A DNA stretch of 62,458 nt, counting the filler, from Basidiobolus ranarum (Eukaryota): NCBI GenBank assembly GCA_040143965.1. It is 22 parts of 22 records of this genome, joined end to end, with 100 filler letters (N's around TTAATTAATTAA, not from the genome) between each part and the next. Parts side by side here need not be neighbours in the genome. Positions count along the whole stretch, not along the records: positions 14,263 to 17,012 come from JASJQH010009885.1; 21 more parts are not named here. One strand, given 5' to 3'. Made by a program: the position numbers and the translations under genes. The notes beneath the pieces are model-generated. The model was not told the origin of the DNA, did not search any database, and was given only the letters and a program-made list of their open reading frames with translations. Each line of letters opens with the position of its first letter. Position 1 is the stretch's first letter. Positions 11,412 through 59,725 of the stretch are shown piece after piece.

Positions 11412-12950
11412 TGAATTTTCCACTGTATAGCTGAGTAAGTAGTATTGGAATGTAGTTGAATAGTAAGTGCATAGTGCCTAATGGGAAGCTATGGATCCAG
11501 CTGATCTTCTTTAGCAATAATATCTTGAGCTTATGACTAAAATCAAGTTTCATGTAAGTCTGACTATTTGGTGAATTGATATCAGTTATCATGCTGCAAT
11601 CTGACCGGGCTCTTGATAGTAAATTTATGGAGTTTAGCTTTGTATTTGAATGGTAATAAAGCTTCTGATGGATAGCATAGACTCCATTGATATGACAAAA
11701 TCTACAGCAAGATAGTGTATTGTGCCCACTAAAACCTCCACATTTACTGATGGCAGGAATGTCACCAATATATATAATGATATTAGCCCAATAAGATATC
11801 CACCCATCTGAACCCCATTATGTAACTGTTCAAACTCCACAATCAGTGGCTCCAAGAAGCTATTGATAAGCACTGGTGATTTAGGTCCAGACATGATGGA
11901 TAAAATCAGAATACTGTGACTCTTATATTGTTCAGAAGGTGGGAGGTCCAAGTTGATCAAAATTATGGGCCAGCAAGTCTTTCCAACATAATATTTGTTT
12001 GGCAAGAAACAATCCAGAGCCAATGAAAATGCATGATCACGCATATCCTCAAAGAAACCTTGACTTTTTGAGATTCTGGTAGTGATATCCATCATGTATA
12101 TTGGTAATACCATCAGCTTTATGGTTATTACTTTGGTATTGGACCAATGATCTCTATTTGGGTGATTTCATCAATACTTTAAGTCAGGGAATCAATGGTA
12201 TGTAAGCCAAATATGAACAATATATATCTGATTCAGTGCTTGCCAATTGTGTGTAAATAGTACATGACTTCAGGTTTTCAGATCACAGGTGAAAGCCAAA
12301 CAGCCATTTGGACATGTAGATAGTTTGATTACCCAAGGATTATAAGTCATAAAATTGACAGGTGTTTTCCCCTTGTATTAGGTTTGTGGCAAGCAACTGT
12401 TACCAATCAACTGTGATAAAAGTGTAAGAAAACCAATAAACACCTGGTTGCTAAGATTGAATTGTACTCTCCACTCCTTAATAATCAAAGCTGCTTCCTT
12501 TAATGTAAGTGTTATGAGTGGACTTATGCTTGCCAAAAATAAAGAGTCCATAACAAGACCATTGTCTTCTTCAACTTCTGATATACTACCATCAGTACTG
12601 GAATAACCAAGGTTAACATCTAGCAGCATGTCCTCAAAGTTGTCTGGACTTACTGGTTTGACCAAAATTGTTTCTCTATCTACATCATTCTGGTCATATA
12701 AAGGTGGTAACTTCACAATATCTGGACTTTTGGCAGCATTACTGAAGCTTTGATGCAAATGCAGTCAGTGGACTCAGTGGGCAAAACTAAAGTTGATTTT
12801 GTGCACTTATTACTGTTGATATTCACCTGGCTTTGTGCAGCTGGTGGCTTTCTATGGTGACTGTGCTTATGATTATTTTTACTGTGAAACCTCTGGCTTT
12901 CATATCACTAGAATTTGTGACTATAATAATAGGGCTTCTTAAAGCATTTG
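11412..12950 (-). pseudogene. CACTA/EnSpm (Tnp2/Transposase_21-like) transposase, N-terminal and catalytic part, decayed
   Basis: SLALDCF...CWPIILINLDLPPSEQYKSHSILILSIMSGPKSP..INSFLEPLIVE motif, preceded by CPNGCLAF; stops and frameshifts; second copy at 48399-49900. The 5' limit is approximate. Confidence 0.88.
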
Positions 12951-14262: not shown

Positions 14263-15173
14263 CATGGGTCAATTGTAGGCGCATCATTATTCTGAATTGC
14301 AACTCTATCTTGGAAGAATAGGGTGAATTCTCTGAATGGGCAGTCAGGATGAGAGTGTTGATCTTCCTCGGCATAAAAATCGTATCTCTTGGGACATCCT
14401 CCATTTAAAGGATAAGGATGAATATCCACATGTATACCATCTACAGTTGGTTTTCCTGTGGTCGGATCAGTCCAGAGAGAGCCTCTAGGTTCGACAATTA
14501 TGGCGCCGAATAATCCATGGACCACTGTTCCAGTTGGTGAGCCATCATAAGAACCACCATCAGAGATCAAGTAAGTACCTTCCCTCAAACAAGGCCATGT
14601 ATATTCTTTCTCTTGTCCTGAGTTGATTAAACTGGTAGGGTTTACTCCTACGGAAGTTCCGTCATTCTGGATGTCGTACCCATAAAGATAAGGGTGCATT
14701 CCGACCTCACGACCTTGAATGTTGTTTGTGAATTTGACATGAATTTTATCACCTTGATTACAACGTAGCACGAGTGGTTTCACTAGAGGATCCATAGGTA
14801 AAGCAGTAGAATTCTGACTCAAAAGTCCTAAAATGTTATCACGGTAATTGCTGAGATGTTCAAGATTCTCCTTCAAAGCAAACATGACACCATTGACATC
14901 AAAATCGCCCCATGAGTTCAGCACAATTGGCATCGGGATCGCGGAAACTTCATACAGACGAGTTTGAGGAACAAGTCTTTGCCGCATGTCCGACTTACCT
15001 CTGTTTCCGTTCCTTCTCGAGTCTCTACCTGTAGAACGAGAGCCGTTATTTTCGTAGGACGAGACACTGGGAAGTAATAAACTTAACATCAGTAATATCA
15101 GCAACAAGTAGACCAGAGAATGGAGCACTCGGCCCTGGTGCCGTTCACGCTTTGATGGCCTATTATTGAGCAT
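14263..15173 (-). CDS. MnxG-like large multicopper oxidase, N-terminal part (truncated by contig end)
   Basis: N-terminal hydrophobic signal/anchor, then YEVSAIPMPIVLNSWGDFDVNGVMFALKEN, PLVLRCNQGD, HGLFGAIIVEPRGSLWTDPTTG and FREFTLFFQD, matching my recollection of domain 1 of Bacillus MnxG-type oxidases. First ATG at 15173; TATATAAG near 15232-15239. Confidence 0.8.
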
Positions 15174-15920
15174 CGTTGAGTGACACCAGTATATACTTGA
15201 GCTGATGAGTTTTGTTTGTACCACATCTCATCTTATATACTACCTAAGAACCAGGATTTGTCAGAGAGTTGTGCACTTTGTAACTTGATGAAGAGAGGGA
15301 TTTTGGCTTCAAGAGTTTGAAAAAAAGCAGGCCATGCAGTTGGCATACAAATCCTTGCATGTTACTTGTGGTGATACATTCGAGTGCGTTAGTTTCAATA
15401 AATTCCTATATACTTCGATAGCGAGATGTTTTGGCCTGTAATCCGTGATGTGAAACTGGTTATTAAAAATTGTTACACAGTTTAGATACTTGTTTGATCG
15501 TATTGTAAATATAGATTAGCAGGTATAAATATTTGACACTTTGAATGTGGCAACTGGTTGGATTGTGATAAATACAAAGTTAATCAGAGACTCTAAGAAA
15601 GAGATTGATGCCTTGAACATAGTAAAATATCCACTATAAGCATTGCAGAAATAAAGATCAAAGAACTAGAAACACCAGTAATGATATAAAATGCCAACAT
15701 TAAGGGGTATTTCTATTCCATGCTACGGGGTTAGTAAAATGAACCCCCTAGATTGATGACATCCGCACCTGTTTATTTAAAGAGATTGCTTGAATTATAG
15801 GGTTGAGTATCAACATTACTTCTGTGGAATTTTCTGAAATAGATAAAGTCAATTCTCAAAATGTGAAATATGTTCAAGAAAAAGATCTAATTTTATTGTA
15901 AAATTCAGGATAGCAATTCA

Positions 15921-17012
15921 TTATTTGTGCACACGGAAAATACCCCAGCTCTCTAATAAGTACTCTGTATTTAACCATCCAGTTCTATATGCCCAGTCTC
16001 CAGTGCTATTGCTGGCTGTAAACTCATTTGCAATACTTGACCCAGGACCGATAGCATTGTTGACTGAGGAGACACCATGTTGCGGTGCCTTCAGCTGATC
16101 AATCCACGCATGACCATGGAGATGGAATGATTGTGGTCTTGATTTGTCCAAACCACTGACAACATATAGAATTTGTCGAACACCAGCAAGTGCATGGAAT
16201 ATTTCAGTCGAGGGGCGACTATTTTGCAACCAGCGAGTAGCAAATGCTGGTTGATTCCTATAGCTCATGGCTTTCAGTCCTGCGTCCTGGAAATTGACAC
16301 CAGCCTCACCTGGCACAGGAGTAGTAACGTTGGACAAAACTTGGAATGGGAAGCCAGTAGCATAAGGAATTGGTGTGTTGGCAGCGTTGTTTTGGAACAA
16401 GCGTAGGCCAGATTGCAATATCACCACTTTGTCCTGATAAAGTAATCGCCCACGACGTGCTTTACCACCGTAAACATTAGTGTGATAGTAAACATTGGAT
16501 TCAGCGCCAATCCAATTTTCTGGTACTTCATGTGCAGGCAGAATTACAAGAGCTCCAATCAATCCGTGGTGCTTATGATTGCGAATATCGGCATGATCTT
16601 GTAGTGGAAGAGCTCCTAAATGTTGATCTGCATACCAATTATAAACTCTTGTGCGTCCAGGAGCTACTGTAGAGTCTTCATTATAACCAATATTGGTACC
16701 ATCATCATATCTTACATCATGCTGTATGAGCGGACAATGCATAGATACTCTGCTAGAGACTCTACGATTTGGATCATCTACTGGAACAGGAACGGCAAAT
16801 GGTTCAGGAGCAAGGTGTTTGGGCAGCCCATTATGCAAATGAAGCTGAATACGCTCTCCAACTAGGCCTCGAATAATCAGTGGATCAACTTTGTTTCCTT
16901 TTACATTGAAGCATTCCCGGTTCTTTGGCTTGATGATCTTTGGTGACCGTGGCTCTTGATATCCTGTCAAGCAGTAAATCAAGCCATAAGGATCACTCCA
17001 TCCATCTGTATT
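15921..17012 (-). CDS. MnxG-like multicopper oxidase, C-terminal cupredoxin domains of an upstream tandem paralog (5' truncated)
   Basis: PLIIRGLVGE, RVSMH, DGTNIGYNEDSTVAPG, DHADIRNHKHHGLIGAL, SFHLHGHAW, GDWAYRTG...WGIFRV; open to the contig edge, no introns. Confidence 0.82.
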   Translation of the reverse strand, partial: NTDGWSDPYGLIYCLTGYQEPRSPKIIKPKNRECFNVKGNKVDPLIIRGLVGERIQLHLHNGLPKHLAPEPFAVPVPVDDPNRRVSSRVSMHCPLIQHDVRYDDGTNIGYNEDSTVAPGRTRVYNWYADQHLGALPLQDHADIRNHKHHGLIGALVILPAHEVPENWIGAESNVYYHTNVYGGKARRGRLLYQDKVVILQSGLRLFQNNAANTPIPYATGFPFQVLSNVTTPVPGEAGVNFQDAGLKAMSYRNQPAFATRWLQNSRPSTEIFHALAGVRQILYVVSGLDKSRPQSFHLHGHAWIDQLKAPQHGVSSVNNAIGPGSSIANEFTASNSTGDWAYRTGWLNTEYLLESWGIFRVHK

Positions 17013-56892: not shown

Positions 56893-57716
56893 CTCAAAAC
56901 AATTCCTCCAGCACTGTTGCGGATGGTGTTGTAGCGGATTGTAGCCTTACTGGACTTGACAGAAATGATTTCTGGGTCACCATCACATGATTCAAATAGG
57001 TTGTATTGAACATTGGCACCGGCTTCGGGGCCATTAGGGAAATTTGGATGAGTATTTCCTAATGCGATAGCTTCACCACCATTGTCGGAGGCAGGAATAA
57101 GGTCATGGAAGTAAGAACGATCAATTTGCAAGTTGGTAGCAATAGGGACTGTCTTGGAGGCTCCATTGGAAGCCATGATAATTGGTGAACCCTGGCCTCG
57201 CTTTGGTCCAAATTCACAACGATCAATACGAACTGAATCTGAAGTAGATTTGACTACAAGCCAATCGTGATTTTTTCCATCGGTGGGATCTCTAATCTTG
57301 AATGAAGATCTTGTGATACGGCAACTCTGGCAACCTTCAATTTCAATTCGTTGACCTGAGCCACTGAAGGTGAAGCCATCAAGCACTACATACGAATTGT
57401 CCCTGAATTTGAAATCTTTGGTGAGAACAGCCTTACCAGTATTCTTAGCACGGATCACAATTGGTGCTTTCTGAGTTCCTTTAGCATTACGAATGTCACC
57501 AAGAGCACTATAGTCACCATCGTTTAGAATGAAACATGAACCAGGTTTAGCCTTTCCGAGTTTAGCGACAAGGTCCTTAACATTGCCTATTGGTAGTGTT
57601 TGGACGCATGATGGAAGTGGGTCATTCAGGATGTCACTTTTGGGGATGGCAGCATTGGCAGTGAAGAAGACTGTCGCAAGTACGGTGCTTGCAAGGAGGG
57701 TAGATAGATGAACCAT
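56893..57716 (-). CDS. Secreted polysaccharide lyase family 6 (alginate lyase/chondroitinase B-like beta-helix), 3' truncated
   Basis: Signal peptide; AKPGSCFILNDGDY, GTQKAPIVIRA, NGGEAI.LG and NLFESCDGDPEIISVKS..ATIRYNT motifs; intronless. Confidence 0.88.
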
Positions 57717-59725
57717 AATGAATATGGTTTATGAGAAGAGGCATGTATGGCTATTTATGTGGGTTATTAGGTGGCTGTTTGCTGATTGTACAAGGTCAGA
57801 ATGATGTATTGTGCTCAAACAACCCAATGAAAAAGAAAATGGATCCAGAGACTTGTACAGGTACTACTATAGCAAACTTCCATACACCTAAACCTTATTA
57901 ACTAAAGCTCATGATTTCTTTTCACAGTGACCGAGATTATATAGGTACTTATTTTGGGCTGATATTCTGCAGTTGGAATAGGTGAATACAGTTTACACAA
58001 TTGATTTGATTACAGGGGTGTAACGTAACTGAGTAGAACTGTTAGCACAATACAAGTTGAAGATCCTTGGTAATCTTAGAGTAACGGCATATCTTGAATA
58101 CCATCACTACAATGTAAAGAGTTGAACTACTCTGCGCATGAACAATCTTTGTTTCCCAAATTGTAAAGATTGCAGTGATTTTCCATATAGAAGGATCAGC
58201 CATGTTAATGGAAAATTTGAGCTGATTTCACACGTTGCCTATAACGCTTGTTACACGGCAAAATCGTCATCATTGATGCCAATGAAAGTTGGGGGAAAAT
58301 CAAAACAAATATCCGAAATAGGACAACTATTTCAAGTGCCGGGTTCAAGTATTTCATTTAGATAATCATAGAGACAAAGTAAAATAGGGCCTTAGCACAT
58401 CAAAATCCGATTAAAAACAATTATTGAATGCAATAATGAGTGATGTTATCAATTGATTGGTAACAAAAGAATTACGTAAATAGTAATTGTGATTCTAGTT
58501 ATAAACACTCAGTCTATGAAGCATATATATTACTGCAGGTAATGATGCAGCTTAAAGGGGGAAACTTGGGCCAACATCCTTGGGGGTTAATAGATTACCC
58601 ATGATAGGGAGTTTAGTTTATGTTTATTGGTACCAATACCAGGTTTGCTATGAAGCGTATAGATAACATCAACTAAATCGCATGATGTAATATTCATCCC
58701 AACAAAGTTAATATATCCATTTGAGTGTTGTCTCACAAGCTTAATTATCTAGAATTCACAGAGCATCTGGCCTAAGTATGTAGTAAACGCCTTCTACCAT
58801 GACATAGCATATCTCTGCTACTTTTTATGTTCAAGAGAATGATAATATGAACTAAGTGTTTGTATATTCTGCACATCGTTGCCAATGATCATTTATCATA
58901 TGATCTCACAGTCAATCTGTACTACCCTAAGGTTTGCTCGAGGCTATTACTCAAGTCTATGGGGTACAGTTACATTTCCTCCAAAACCTGTTGCTTCATA
59001 AGTTACTGTTCCGTGGACATCTTTCTTATGGACTCCTCTACCTGAATATATTCATATAGCGACTTGGCTTGTATGAGGATAGACTCAGTCTACGCGTCAA
59101 CTTCTACACTCCCGCCTAAGTAAAAAGAAATAGTGGAGACTGAGACTTTTATTTGCTGTGCTTCCTTCTCGCGTTACGCAACTTGGTTCTGTGGTCATTT
59201 GCACCTCTATGGTCTGTGAATATTTAGGTCTCACGAAACTCATAGTCCGCTTTTTCCACCAATTCATCCTCTATGTATCCAGTTTTGCTTTTATTTCTTC
59301 TTTCTTTGGCAAATGACCCTTTATTCATGTATGCCCAAGTTACACACTCCTATATTCTTAGCGCTTGCACAAGCCACTTTGTATTCAGCCCTCTCGAATG
59401 GAGAGCACAATCTATTTAATACTCCGATCGTCTAGCTATTAGGTTGTATTGTAATTGGCATCCTATTTAGCCTTGAAAGATTCTACTGTTTCCACGGCTA
59501 TAACAATACTATTTAACTCTAGCAGAATGTTGGCCATCTTTACTACTAGATATTCTTCCAATGGGCTAGGTAAGTATGGTGTTTACACGCACTAGACTCT
59601 GCCGGTTCTGTACGCGGTAATTCATNNNNNNNNNNNNNNNNNNNNNNNNNNNNNNNNNNNNNNNNNNNNTTAATTAATTAANNNNNNNNNNNNNNNNNNN
59701 NNNNNNNNNNNNNNNNNNNNNNNNN

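Follow-up and report, generated by a model that had tools for sequence, protein, structure and literature searches.

Two truncated tandem copies of an MnxG-like multicopper oxidase gene on a Basidiobolus contig belong to a fungal branch of the family distinct from the Bacillus type

The window analysed here is a stretch of 62,458 bases, and one of its contigs, at positions 14263-17012, carries parts of two multicopper oxidase genes of the fungus Basidiobolus. A first-pass annotation of this contig had proposed a horizontally acquired, duplicated and secreted metal oxidase related to MnxG, the large manganese oxidase of Bacillus. We find that the feature is real, and that it consists of two truncated tandem copies belonging to an old, leader-bearing fungal branch of MnxG-like oxidases, which is not of the Bacillus type. 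The explanation as a whole, in which a Basidiobolus contig holds tandem copies of an MnxG-like oxidase gene that goes back to an old bacterial acquisition, gained a leader and encodes a secreted oxidase, appears to us to be probable.

The window comprises 22 contigs, ordered by length from 2,755 down to 2,733 bases. It contains 42 runs of exactly 44 N, paired around the 12-mer TTAATTAATTAA, and is therefore made up of 22 separate contigs connected by artificial linkers; any apparent linkage across a linker is likewise artificial. Positions 14263-17012 correspond to exactly one contig of 2,750 bases with no physical linkage to anything beyond it, and its two minus-strand reading frames represent the 3' end of one gene (gene A) and, after a spacer, the 5' end of a second (gene B), both of which are cut by the contig ends (Table 1). 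Gene B starts with the ATG at 15173 and its frame stays open to the other end of the contig. When compared with the B. ranarum protein K7432_009757 (1,341 aa), gene A matches residues 979-1341 with 82.6% identity and no gaps, and gene B matches residues 1-302 with 77% identity and a single gap. Since these matches are colinear with the two ends of one protein, the genes are cut and not split. Thus, the earlier proposal that one gene supplies the N-terminal and the other the C-terminal domains has to be abandoned: each piece belongs to a gene of ~1,340 codons interrupted by a contig end, and the "split" architecture is a contig-end artefact. The gapless alignments (the one gap in gene B aside) also mean that the gene parts on the contig have no introns; hence the description of the genes as intronless holds for these two parts and does not extend to the whole genes. 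The domains present on the contig are domain 1 with the start of domain 2, and domains 5-6, out of the six found in orthologues of 1,336-1,342 aa, and the middle ~676 codons, with the catalytic copper ligands, are covered by neither piece. No further oxidase piece was found elsewhere in the window, as tblastn of five Basidiobolus proteins matched only this contig.

We read the contig as the 3' end of one copy followed by the 5' end of the next, head-to-tail copy. In the trees, B. ranarum 009757 branches as the sister of gene A (99/98), and gene B falls into the same Basidiobolus subfamily (97/98), with 77.5% identity to 009757 and 75.2% to the partial protein 009995. Paralogues are numerous in the genus, with at least four in B. 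ranarum and three in B. meristosporus. The B. meristosporus proteins 380874 and 409940 are both listed on an 83,466-bp contig, and both copies of the chytrid Fimicolochytrium jonesii on a 459,799-bp contig, which suggests that linked copies, though not necessarily adjacent ones, occur elsewhere. The two B. meristosporus proteins are 85% identical overall, and a long segment leading up to domain 5 and extending into it (alignment columns 1101-1200) shows no difference between them, which suggests that the duplication is recent or that linked copies have undergone gene conversion. It would also be conceivable that there is no tandem pair, and that the assembler misjoined or permuted a single-copy gene or two unlinked copies: both contig ends fall within a gene, the pieces cover non-overlapping parts and are both closest to the same B. 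ranarum gene, and the assembly is highly fragmented (all 22 contigs of the window are ~2.75 kb long). However, the order 3' end, spacer, 5' end on one contig needs that junction in the reads, which is the junction of head-to-tail copies, and Basidiobolus genomes have several paralogues, two of them in B. meristosporus listing a contig of the same size. Moreover, tandem duplication would lead one to expect contig breaks inside near-identical repeat bodies in a short-read assembly. We consider a misassembly to be unlikely and retain the head-to-tail copies.

The family of the two pieces was assigned by a phmmer search against all PDB chains, in which the top match of both was MnxG of Bacillus (9bxa_A, 1,227 aa). 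The C-terminal piece, gene A, matched with an E-value of 3.7e-54 (residues 35-363 to chain residues 871-1205), and the N-terminal piece, gene B, with 2.5e-47 over the domain 1 core given in Table 1. The next matches were bacterial two-domain laccases, at E ~3e-6 and 9e-6. Neither a fungal laccase nor a Fet3 chain was among the matches to E 1 (54 and 8 distinct sequences listed), and ceruloplasmin was likewise missing from the PDB matches, the best eukaryotic six-domain protein being a factor VIII chimera at E 0.79. The claim that the genes are MnxG-like, and not three-domain laccases or Fet3 proteins of the usual fungal kind, is borne out by this search, in which no ordinary fungal laccase or ferroxidase appeared to E 1 and ceruloplasmin could also be set aside. 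Both pieces passed the Pfam model Cu-oxidase_3 (25.9 bits for gene A and 22.4 bits for gene B, cut-off 21), and Cu-oxidase_2 stayed at 14.7 bits, under its cut-off of 20.4. All close relatives of the two pieces are proteins of ~1,200-1,600 aa, the nearest being B. ranarum and B. meristosporus proteins of ~1,340 aa (64-83% identity) and, after them, chytrid ones, and the full-length Basidiobolus proteins are colinear end to end with bacterial MnxG-type proteins of 1,226-1,230 aa. Judged from these sequence comparisons, gene A and gene B belong to the MnxG-like multicopper oxidases, and their complete products probably have six domains.

MnxG of Bacillus sp. PL-12 (PDB 9bxa), a Mn(II) oxidase of the spore exosporium found in the MnxG-MnxE3F3 complex, is the only strong solved relative of both pieces. 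It shares with the fungal proteins a colinear layout of six cupredoxin domains, type-1 and trinuclear copper ligands in domains 2-3, and a domain 6 devoid of a type-1 site. The fungal proteins differ from it in that their identity to MnxG is only about 30-38% and they form a separate subclade, and they add a leader plus linker of ~70 residues, a Cys-containing insert in domain 1 and a linker of ~50 residues before domain 5. They also have a eukaryotic host and, if the leader is read correctly, a secretory route, and no MnxE/MnxF genes adjoin the gene pieces on our contig, in contrast to the Mnx system of Bacillus. The eukaryotic proteins ceruloplasmin, hephaestin and factor VIII are likewise extracellular, with six cupredoxin domains per chain, but they show no significant sequence match (best E 0.79) and are organised differently: the part of PMC3600357 available to us places their type-1 sites in domains 2, 4 and 6 and their trinuclear cluster between domains 1 and 6, whereas the cluster of MnxG-like proteins lies between domains 2 and 3. 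Fungal laccases and Fet3 (CAZy AA1) are comparable as secreted or surface copper oxidases of fungi that are loaded with copper in the secretory pathway, but they have three domains and a separate descent.

The canonical copper ligands lie in domains 2-3 of the family alignment. In the numbering of the B. ranarum protein they are His384, His387 and His389 (HxxHxH), His437-Cys438-His439 with His443 and Met448 (HCHxxxHxxxxM), His648 and His650 (HxH), and His694 and His696 (HDH), and these motifs are intact in 12 of 13 fungal proteins. The exception, F. jonesii EV422DRAFT_603527 (P0049), shows a gap at the HDH motif of domain 3 and an odd hydrophobic insert near residue 53; the gap more likely reflects a faulty gene model than a true loss. 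By contrast, the His motifs listed previously (SMH, HKHHG and HLHGH) belong to domains 5-6, which form no complete copper centre in any member of the family: the HCH type-1 motif and full HxH pairs are missing from these domains in every protein, bacterial ones included. In FHLHGH of domain 6, the preceding type-1 His is replaced by Q and no HCH motif follows. In keeping with this, the part of PMC3600357 available to us describes the mononuclear site of domain 6 as absent from prokaryotic six-domain proteins. His1124 and His1127 of the RNHKHHG motif (B. ranarum protein numbering) are nevertheless invariant in the family alignment, and the His sites of domains 5-6 may bind a further metal. Gene A has no stops and retains every one of the 46 invariant columns of the family and 13 of the 15 near-invariant ones, and is therefore under constraint.

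To place the genes among their relatives, we scanned prokaryotes (one genome per species, two peptide patterns, ranking against the query) and obtained 421 loci encoding related proteins, the best 80 of which were retained; judged by their titles, all 80 are from Bacillota, mostly gut Clostridia, with 31-38% identity. From these top matches a recent transfer from gut Clostridia was first favoured, and it was later rejected on the trees, the chytrid relatives and the approximately unbiased (AU) test. In the first tree, four Basidiobolus proteins grouped with two F. jonesii proteins, apart from Clostridia. A search with the chytrid protein P0049 gave 1,891 scored relatives, and among the best 120 matches 13 carried fungal names (seven chytrid and six Basidiobolus), all other names being bacterial. 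The fungal members are from F. jonesii (two), Powellomyces hirtus, Spizellomyces punctatus, Borealophlyctis nickersoniae and Rhizophlyctis rosea (two), together with the Basidiobolus paralogues, and several of the chytrid copies lie on contigs of 0.46-1.47 Mb. Two further searches brought nothing to this set: a metagenome scan with the Basidiobolus alignment (patterns NGEEQHH and NRWWIDD) matched 371 stretches, none of them a relative, and ESM Atlas look-alikes of the proteins P0042 and P0003 were bacterial clusters only, which adds no evidence.

A tree of 63 rows (quick search, LG+G4, 1,243 columns) united all 13 fungal rows in one clade with a Shimodaira-Hasegawa-like approximate likelihood ratio test (SH-aLRT) value of 100. 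A tree of 29 rows (careful search, LG+C20 mixture model, 969 columns), which leaves out B. ranarum 013123, S. punctatus 09220 and F. jonesii 603527 as truncated or gapped, together with 31 bacterial rows, did the same for its 10 fungal rows (ultrafast bootstrap/SH-aLRT 100/99). Within the fungal clade of the latter tree a divergent F. jonesii paralogue branches first, and the chytrid and Basidiobolus proteins then form sister groups. A mixture of Actinomycetota, Cyanobacteria, Myxococcota, Bacteroidota and Acidobacteriota is sister to the whole fungal clade (100/99), and Bacillus, Paenibacillus and Clostridia form a clade separate from the fungi and these bacteria. In the AU test, holding Basidiobolus together with Bacillota costs 114 log-likelihood units (lnL; p-AU 1e-9), and holding it with the sister bacteria without the chytrids is also rejected (delta lnL 109). 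Hence, the assignment to the Bacillus type does not stand, as the fungal clade groups with bacteria outside Bacillota and the Bacillota alternative carries this cost. The sister-clade bacterial proteins are 34-40% identical to the chytrid query P0049 and share with the fungal ones features that have no counterpart in Bacillota, for example RQKxGLY after the HDH motif; unlike the fungal proteins, they lack a hydrophobic leader, and their sequence starts directly at the first cupredoxin strand. They are uncharacterised, and the "manganese oxidase" labels that some of them bear are automatic JGI names with no functional information.

A recent transfer of a Bacillus- or Clostridia-type MnxG from gut Firmicutes into Basidiobolus alone would have agreed with the Bacillota origin of all of the best 80 of 421 prokaryote loci, and with the 2-5% of bacterial-derived genes, many of them from Firmicutes, that are reported for Basidiobolus in the part of PMC7466969 available to us. 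However, that list of 80 was ranked by the query from two patterns and one genome per species, and is no indicator of the donor; the trees join the fungal clade to non-Bacillota bacteria (AU p 1e-9), chytrids lie within the same clade, and the G+C content at third codon positions (GC3) is the same as in host genes. We regard this recent transfer as very improbable. The simplest history would be one old transfer from a bacterium to a fungus, the donor lineage lying outside Bacillota; the gene would then have been passed down, lost from most fungi and duplicated several times in Basidiobolus, with the family kept in Basidiobolus and in soil and dung chytrids (Spizellomycetales and Rhizophlyctidales). 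A bacterial donor is suggested because the bacterial distribution of the family is far wider (the 421 prokaryote loci and the 1,891 scored relatives). Of the earlier view of an acquired and duplicated gene, bacterial descent and duplication can thus be kept, and a transfer private to this fungus cannot, given the chytrids in the same clade (100/99). Tabima et al. (2020; PMC7466969), in the part available to us, stress transfers from gut bacteria into Basidiobolus. Our genes resemble that set in being of bacterial descent in Basidiobolus, but they differ from it in belonging to a family common to chytrids and older.

Several lines of evidence indicate that the genes belong to the fungus. Among 38 significant longer proteins matched by the N-terminal piece, the top five come from B. 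ranarum and B. meristosporus CBS 931.73 (63-77% identity), and the sixth-best match falls to 38%. For the C-terminal piece, a search of 1.84 billion cluster representatives gave one at 671 bits, from B. ranarum, and the next at 256 bits. A glyoxylate reductase exon on a different contig (37239-37958, minus strand) has 90% identity to B. ranarum and 74% to B. meristosporus, the next relatives being Mucoromycota at about 55-62%; this match, which agrees with the fungal ownership assumed before, spans ~70% of the open reading frame (ORF), and the remainder is probably read-through into an intron or flank. GC3 of the oxidase pieces is 0.33 and 0.39, compared with 0.33-0.39 for four other coding stretches of the window, and in two independent Basidiobolus assemblies the orthologues are found on contigs of 11-83 kb. 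Given the Basidiobolus-like relatives, the glyoxylate reductase and the host-like GC3, the oxidase genes look resident and not contaminant. The assembly itself would represent a Basidiobolus species near B. ranarum but distinct from it. The overwhelmingly bacterial make-up of the family and the lack of introns in the two pieces would fit a contig from a bacterial contaminant of the fungal assembly. This is at odds, however, with a best bacterial identity of ~38% as opposed to 77-83% to B. ranarum, with orthologues not only on those Basidiobolus contigs but also on chytrid contigs of up to 1.47 Mb, with the hydrophobic leader of gene B, missing from all 15 bacterial relatives examined, with an A+T-rich spacer of 747 nt that holds no Shine-Dalgarno-like GGAGG, and with the host-like GC3. 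The probability that we assign to contamination is close to negligible, and we treat the genes as those of Basidiobolus.

The long hydrophobic leader ascribed earlier to the downstream copy is present in gene B as a basic stretch of 19 residues followed by a hydrophobic core of 15 residues, LVYLLLILLMLSLLL, at residues 20-34 (15116-15072; mean Kyte-Doolittle value 3.1). A Ser/Arg-rich linker after SVSS/Y runs to residue 72, where likeness to MnxG begins at its residue 3. In eight of 13 fungal relatives a 15-residue window reaches a mean of at least 2.0 within the first 70 residues, and three more have weaker signal-like starts; in one of the eight, F. jonesii 603527, the hydrophobic window is at position 53 and is not N-terminal. 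None of 15 bacterial relatives has a window mean of 2.0 (maximum 1.76), and these proteins start directly at the first strand. The leader of gene B is predicted from hydropathy to be either a signal peptide or a signal anchor. As to the earlier claim of a secretion signal, a eukaryote-type leader that is missing from these bacterial relatives is indeed found, and its role in secretion is a prediction from hydropathy. By adding a hydrophobic leader, the fungal branch would have gained entry to the secretory pathway. Eukaryotic copper oxidases receive their copper in this pathway, and the fungal protein would be loaded with copper there and exposed outside the cell.

At the cell exterior, the type-1 copper in domain 2 would take single electrons from an extracellular substrate, and a Cys-His bridge would hand them on to the trinuclear copper cluster between domains 2 and 3, at which O2 would be reduced to water. 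By homology, the substrate may be a metal ion, with Mn(II) as the first guess; since just one relative has been studied, the Mn oxidase of Bacillus spores, we put Mn(II) forward tentatively, as somewhat less than probable. Mn(II) oxidation by the fungal members is plausible, and Fe(II), Cu(I) and phenolic precursors of wall or pigment are alternative substrates. The same genes could thus have another job, as a ferroxidase, a cuprous oxidase or a phenol oxidase of spore or zygospore walls, and we consider the chances of this to be evenly balanced. A phenol oxidase could serve in wall cross-linking or pigmentation as do copper oxidases of bacterial spore coats, multicopper oxidases are promiscuous, and the fungal clade shares no more than 30-38% identity with Bacillus-type MnxG and belongs to a different subclade of unassayed members. 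Moreover, the part of PMC10252929 available to us attributes known Mn oxidation in fungi to superoxide, Mn peroxidase and laccase-like enzymes, and the MnxE/MnxF ring, described as the exit of MnO2 in Bacillus in the available part of PMC13689576, has no visible counterpart here. On the other hand, the only relative studied biochemically is a Mn oxidase, and the fungal proteins retain both the six-domain architecture and the His residues of domains 5-6 that are invariant in the family.

The question of the ring deserves separate consideration. According to the available part of PMC13689576, Bacillus MnxG is capped by an MnxE3F3 ring, Mn is oxidised along a tunnel, and MnO2 leaves via the MnxE/MnxF ring. 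The 747-nt spacer upstream of gene B holds no mnxE/mnxF-like gene, and the gene upstream of it is another oxidase copy; both Clostridia loci that were inspected (L061 and L002) also have no same-strand pair of small ORFs directly upstream. Given this absence from the spacer and from both Clostridia loci, the MnxE/MnxF cap may not be universal. Many strictly anaerobic gut Clostridia (Lachnospiraceae and Oscillospiraceae, loci L001-L080) carry full-length MnxG-type genes; an O2-reducing enzyme is odd in strict anaerobes, and it might be a spore-coat component. For the fungal branch, we speculate that an MnxG-like oxidase was captured once by early fungi, before or near the split of chytrids and zygomycetes, was retained and multiplied in a few lineages of soil, dung and gut (Basidiobolus, Spizellomycetales and Rhizophlyctidales), and acts as a secreted or surface-anchored enzyme that turns Mn(II) directly into Mn oxide without the MnxE/MnxF ring. 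This full combination is doubtful in our estimation. If it is true, the enzyme would represent the first metal oxidase of the MnxG type in eukaryotes, and would provide a fungal route of Mn biomineralisation distinct from those through superoxide, Mn peroxidase and laccase.

A number of points weigh against the account given here. Domains 2-4 lie off the contig, and either copy could be broken past the contig ends; the tandem arrangement itself rests on one short assembled contig. The NCBIfam model NF041487 (MnxG equivalog) gave only 21.4 and 39.8 bits with a cut-off of 3,100, although this model of 1,894 positions, named "manganese-oxidizing multicopper oxidase MnxG", has a cut-off beyond the reach of fragments, and we take it to describe the Pseudomonas-type MnxG. 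Two of the 13 fungal models have no leader, and their N-termini are odd or truncated. The groups compared in the AU test were named only after the tree had been seen, the root of the family is unplaced, so that "fungi nested in bacteria" would rest on the wider bacterial spread, and one old transfer is not distinguishable from transfer between fungi. Finally, we know of no activity for any member of the fungal clade or its sister clade.

Among the enzymes of bacterial manganese biomineralisation, those of the MnxG type are understood best. In the available part of PMC3600357 they are treated as prokaryotic. Consistently with the earlier statement that no characterised fungal member is known, the literature searched gave no description of a fungal MnxG-like protein, though supplementary tables of horizontal gene transfer (of PMC7466969, and perhaps of PMC11291939) may list such genes, for example B. 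meristosporus 380874, 409940 or 374135. None is mentioned in the available portions of PMC7466969, PMC11291939, PMC7036934, PMC7594830, 10.1101/2025.03.31.646025, PMC12592215 and PMC10252929, and the main text of PMC7466969 has no occurrence of copper, cupredoxin, oxidase, manganese or laccase. What is new from our contig is limited to two truncated copies, since full-length relatives are already public as uncharacterised "hypothetical protein" entries. A fungal branch that carries a leader nevertheless bears on whether the large subunit can work without the MnxE/MnxF cap, and on the enzymatic oxidation of Mn or another metal by early-diverging fungi. If it stems from one old transfer, the family could help to mark deep branchings among fungi, the debated position of Basidiobolus among them. 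Moreover, the clade shared with chytrids tempers the view that the bacterial-like genes of Basidiobolus are all the result of recent exchange in the gut.

The features of the contig are collected in Table 1. The same-strand arrangement, with about 750 bp between the genes, was recovered on the minus strand, as were a TATA-like element before the downstream copy and all of the motifs quoted in the first-pass annotation.

Table 1. Positions in the window of the two oxidase gene pieces, their motifs and the adjoining linkers.
Feature	Position	Strand	Basis
Artificial linker, upstream contig end	17013..17112	.	N44 + TTAATTAATTAA + N44
Gene A, last 363 codons, cupredoxin domains 5-6 of a ~1,340-aa MnxG-like oxidase	15924..17012	-	translation
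SMH, domain-5 remnant of the first HxH copper motif, single His	16737..16745	-	gene A
RNHKHHG, conserved domain-5 His motif	16563..16583	-	gene A
FHLHGH, domain-6 HxH-type motif	16110..16127	-	gene A
Gene A stop codon TAA	15921..15923	-	translation
Spacer, 747 nt, 66% A+T	15174..15920	-	between gene A stop and gene B ATG
AATAAA, 24 nt past gene A stop, possible poly(A) signal	15892..15897	-	sequence motif
TATATAAG, TATA-like element, 66 nt before gene B ATG	15232..15239	-	sequence motif
Gene B, first 303 codons: leader, basic Ser/Arg-rich linker, domain 1, start of domain 2	14265..15173	-	translation
Leader, gene B residues 1-39: basic n-region, hydrophobic core, then SVSS/Y	15057..15173	-	hydropathy
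Gene B domain 1 core, query residues 72-255 to MnxG (9bxa_A) residues 3-176	14409..14960	-	PDB search
HGLFGAIIVEPRGSLWTDP motif	14519-14463	-	gene B
FREFTLFFQD motif	14336-14307	-	gene B
Artificial linker, downstream contig end	14163..14262	.	N44-TTAATTAATTAA-N44

The spacer contains no ATG-started ORF of at least 60 aa on either strand, and neither AGGAGG nor GGAGG. A second AATAAA is found in it at 15777-15772 on the minus strand; both AATAAA and TATATAAG could arise by chance at 66% A+T.

Other contigs of the window hold a few further coding pieces. The contig at 22810-25554 is open from end to end on the minus strand (915 codons, no intron in 2.7 kb) and encodes a piece of a non-ribosomal peptide synthetase, with the end of a condensation domain followed by AMP-binding, PP-binding and thioesterase domains; it is of the bacterial-like type reported for Basidiobolus in the available part of PMC7466969. 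The ORF at 56895-57728 (minus strand) matches Chondroitinase B and the right-handed beta-helix with an E-value of 1.8e-21; it looks like a gene of the polysaccharide lyase kind, and may likewise descend from bacteria. An amino-acid transporter is encoded on another contig, and a piece of a Tnp2-family transposase (Pfam Transposase_21, E 6.5e-11), the remnant of a eukaryotic DNA transposon, lies at 11634-12167 on the minus strand.

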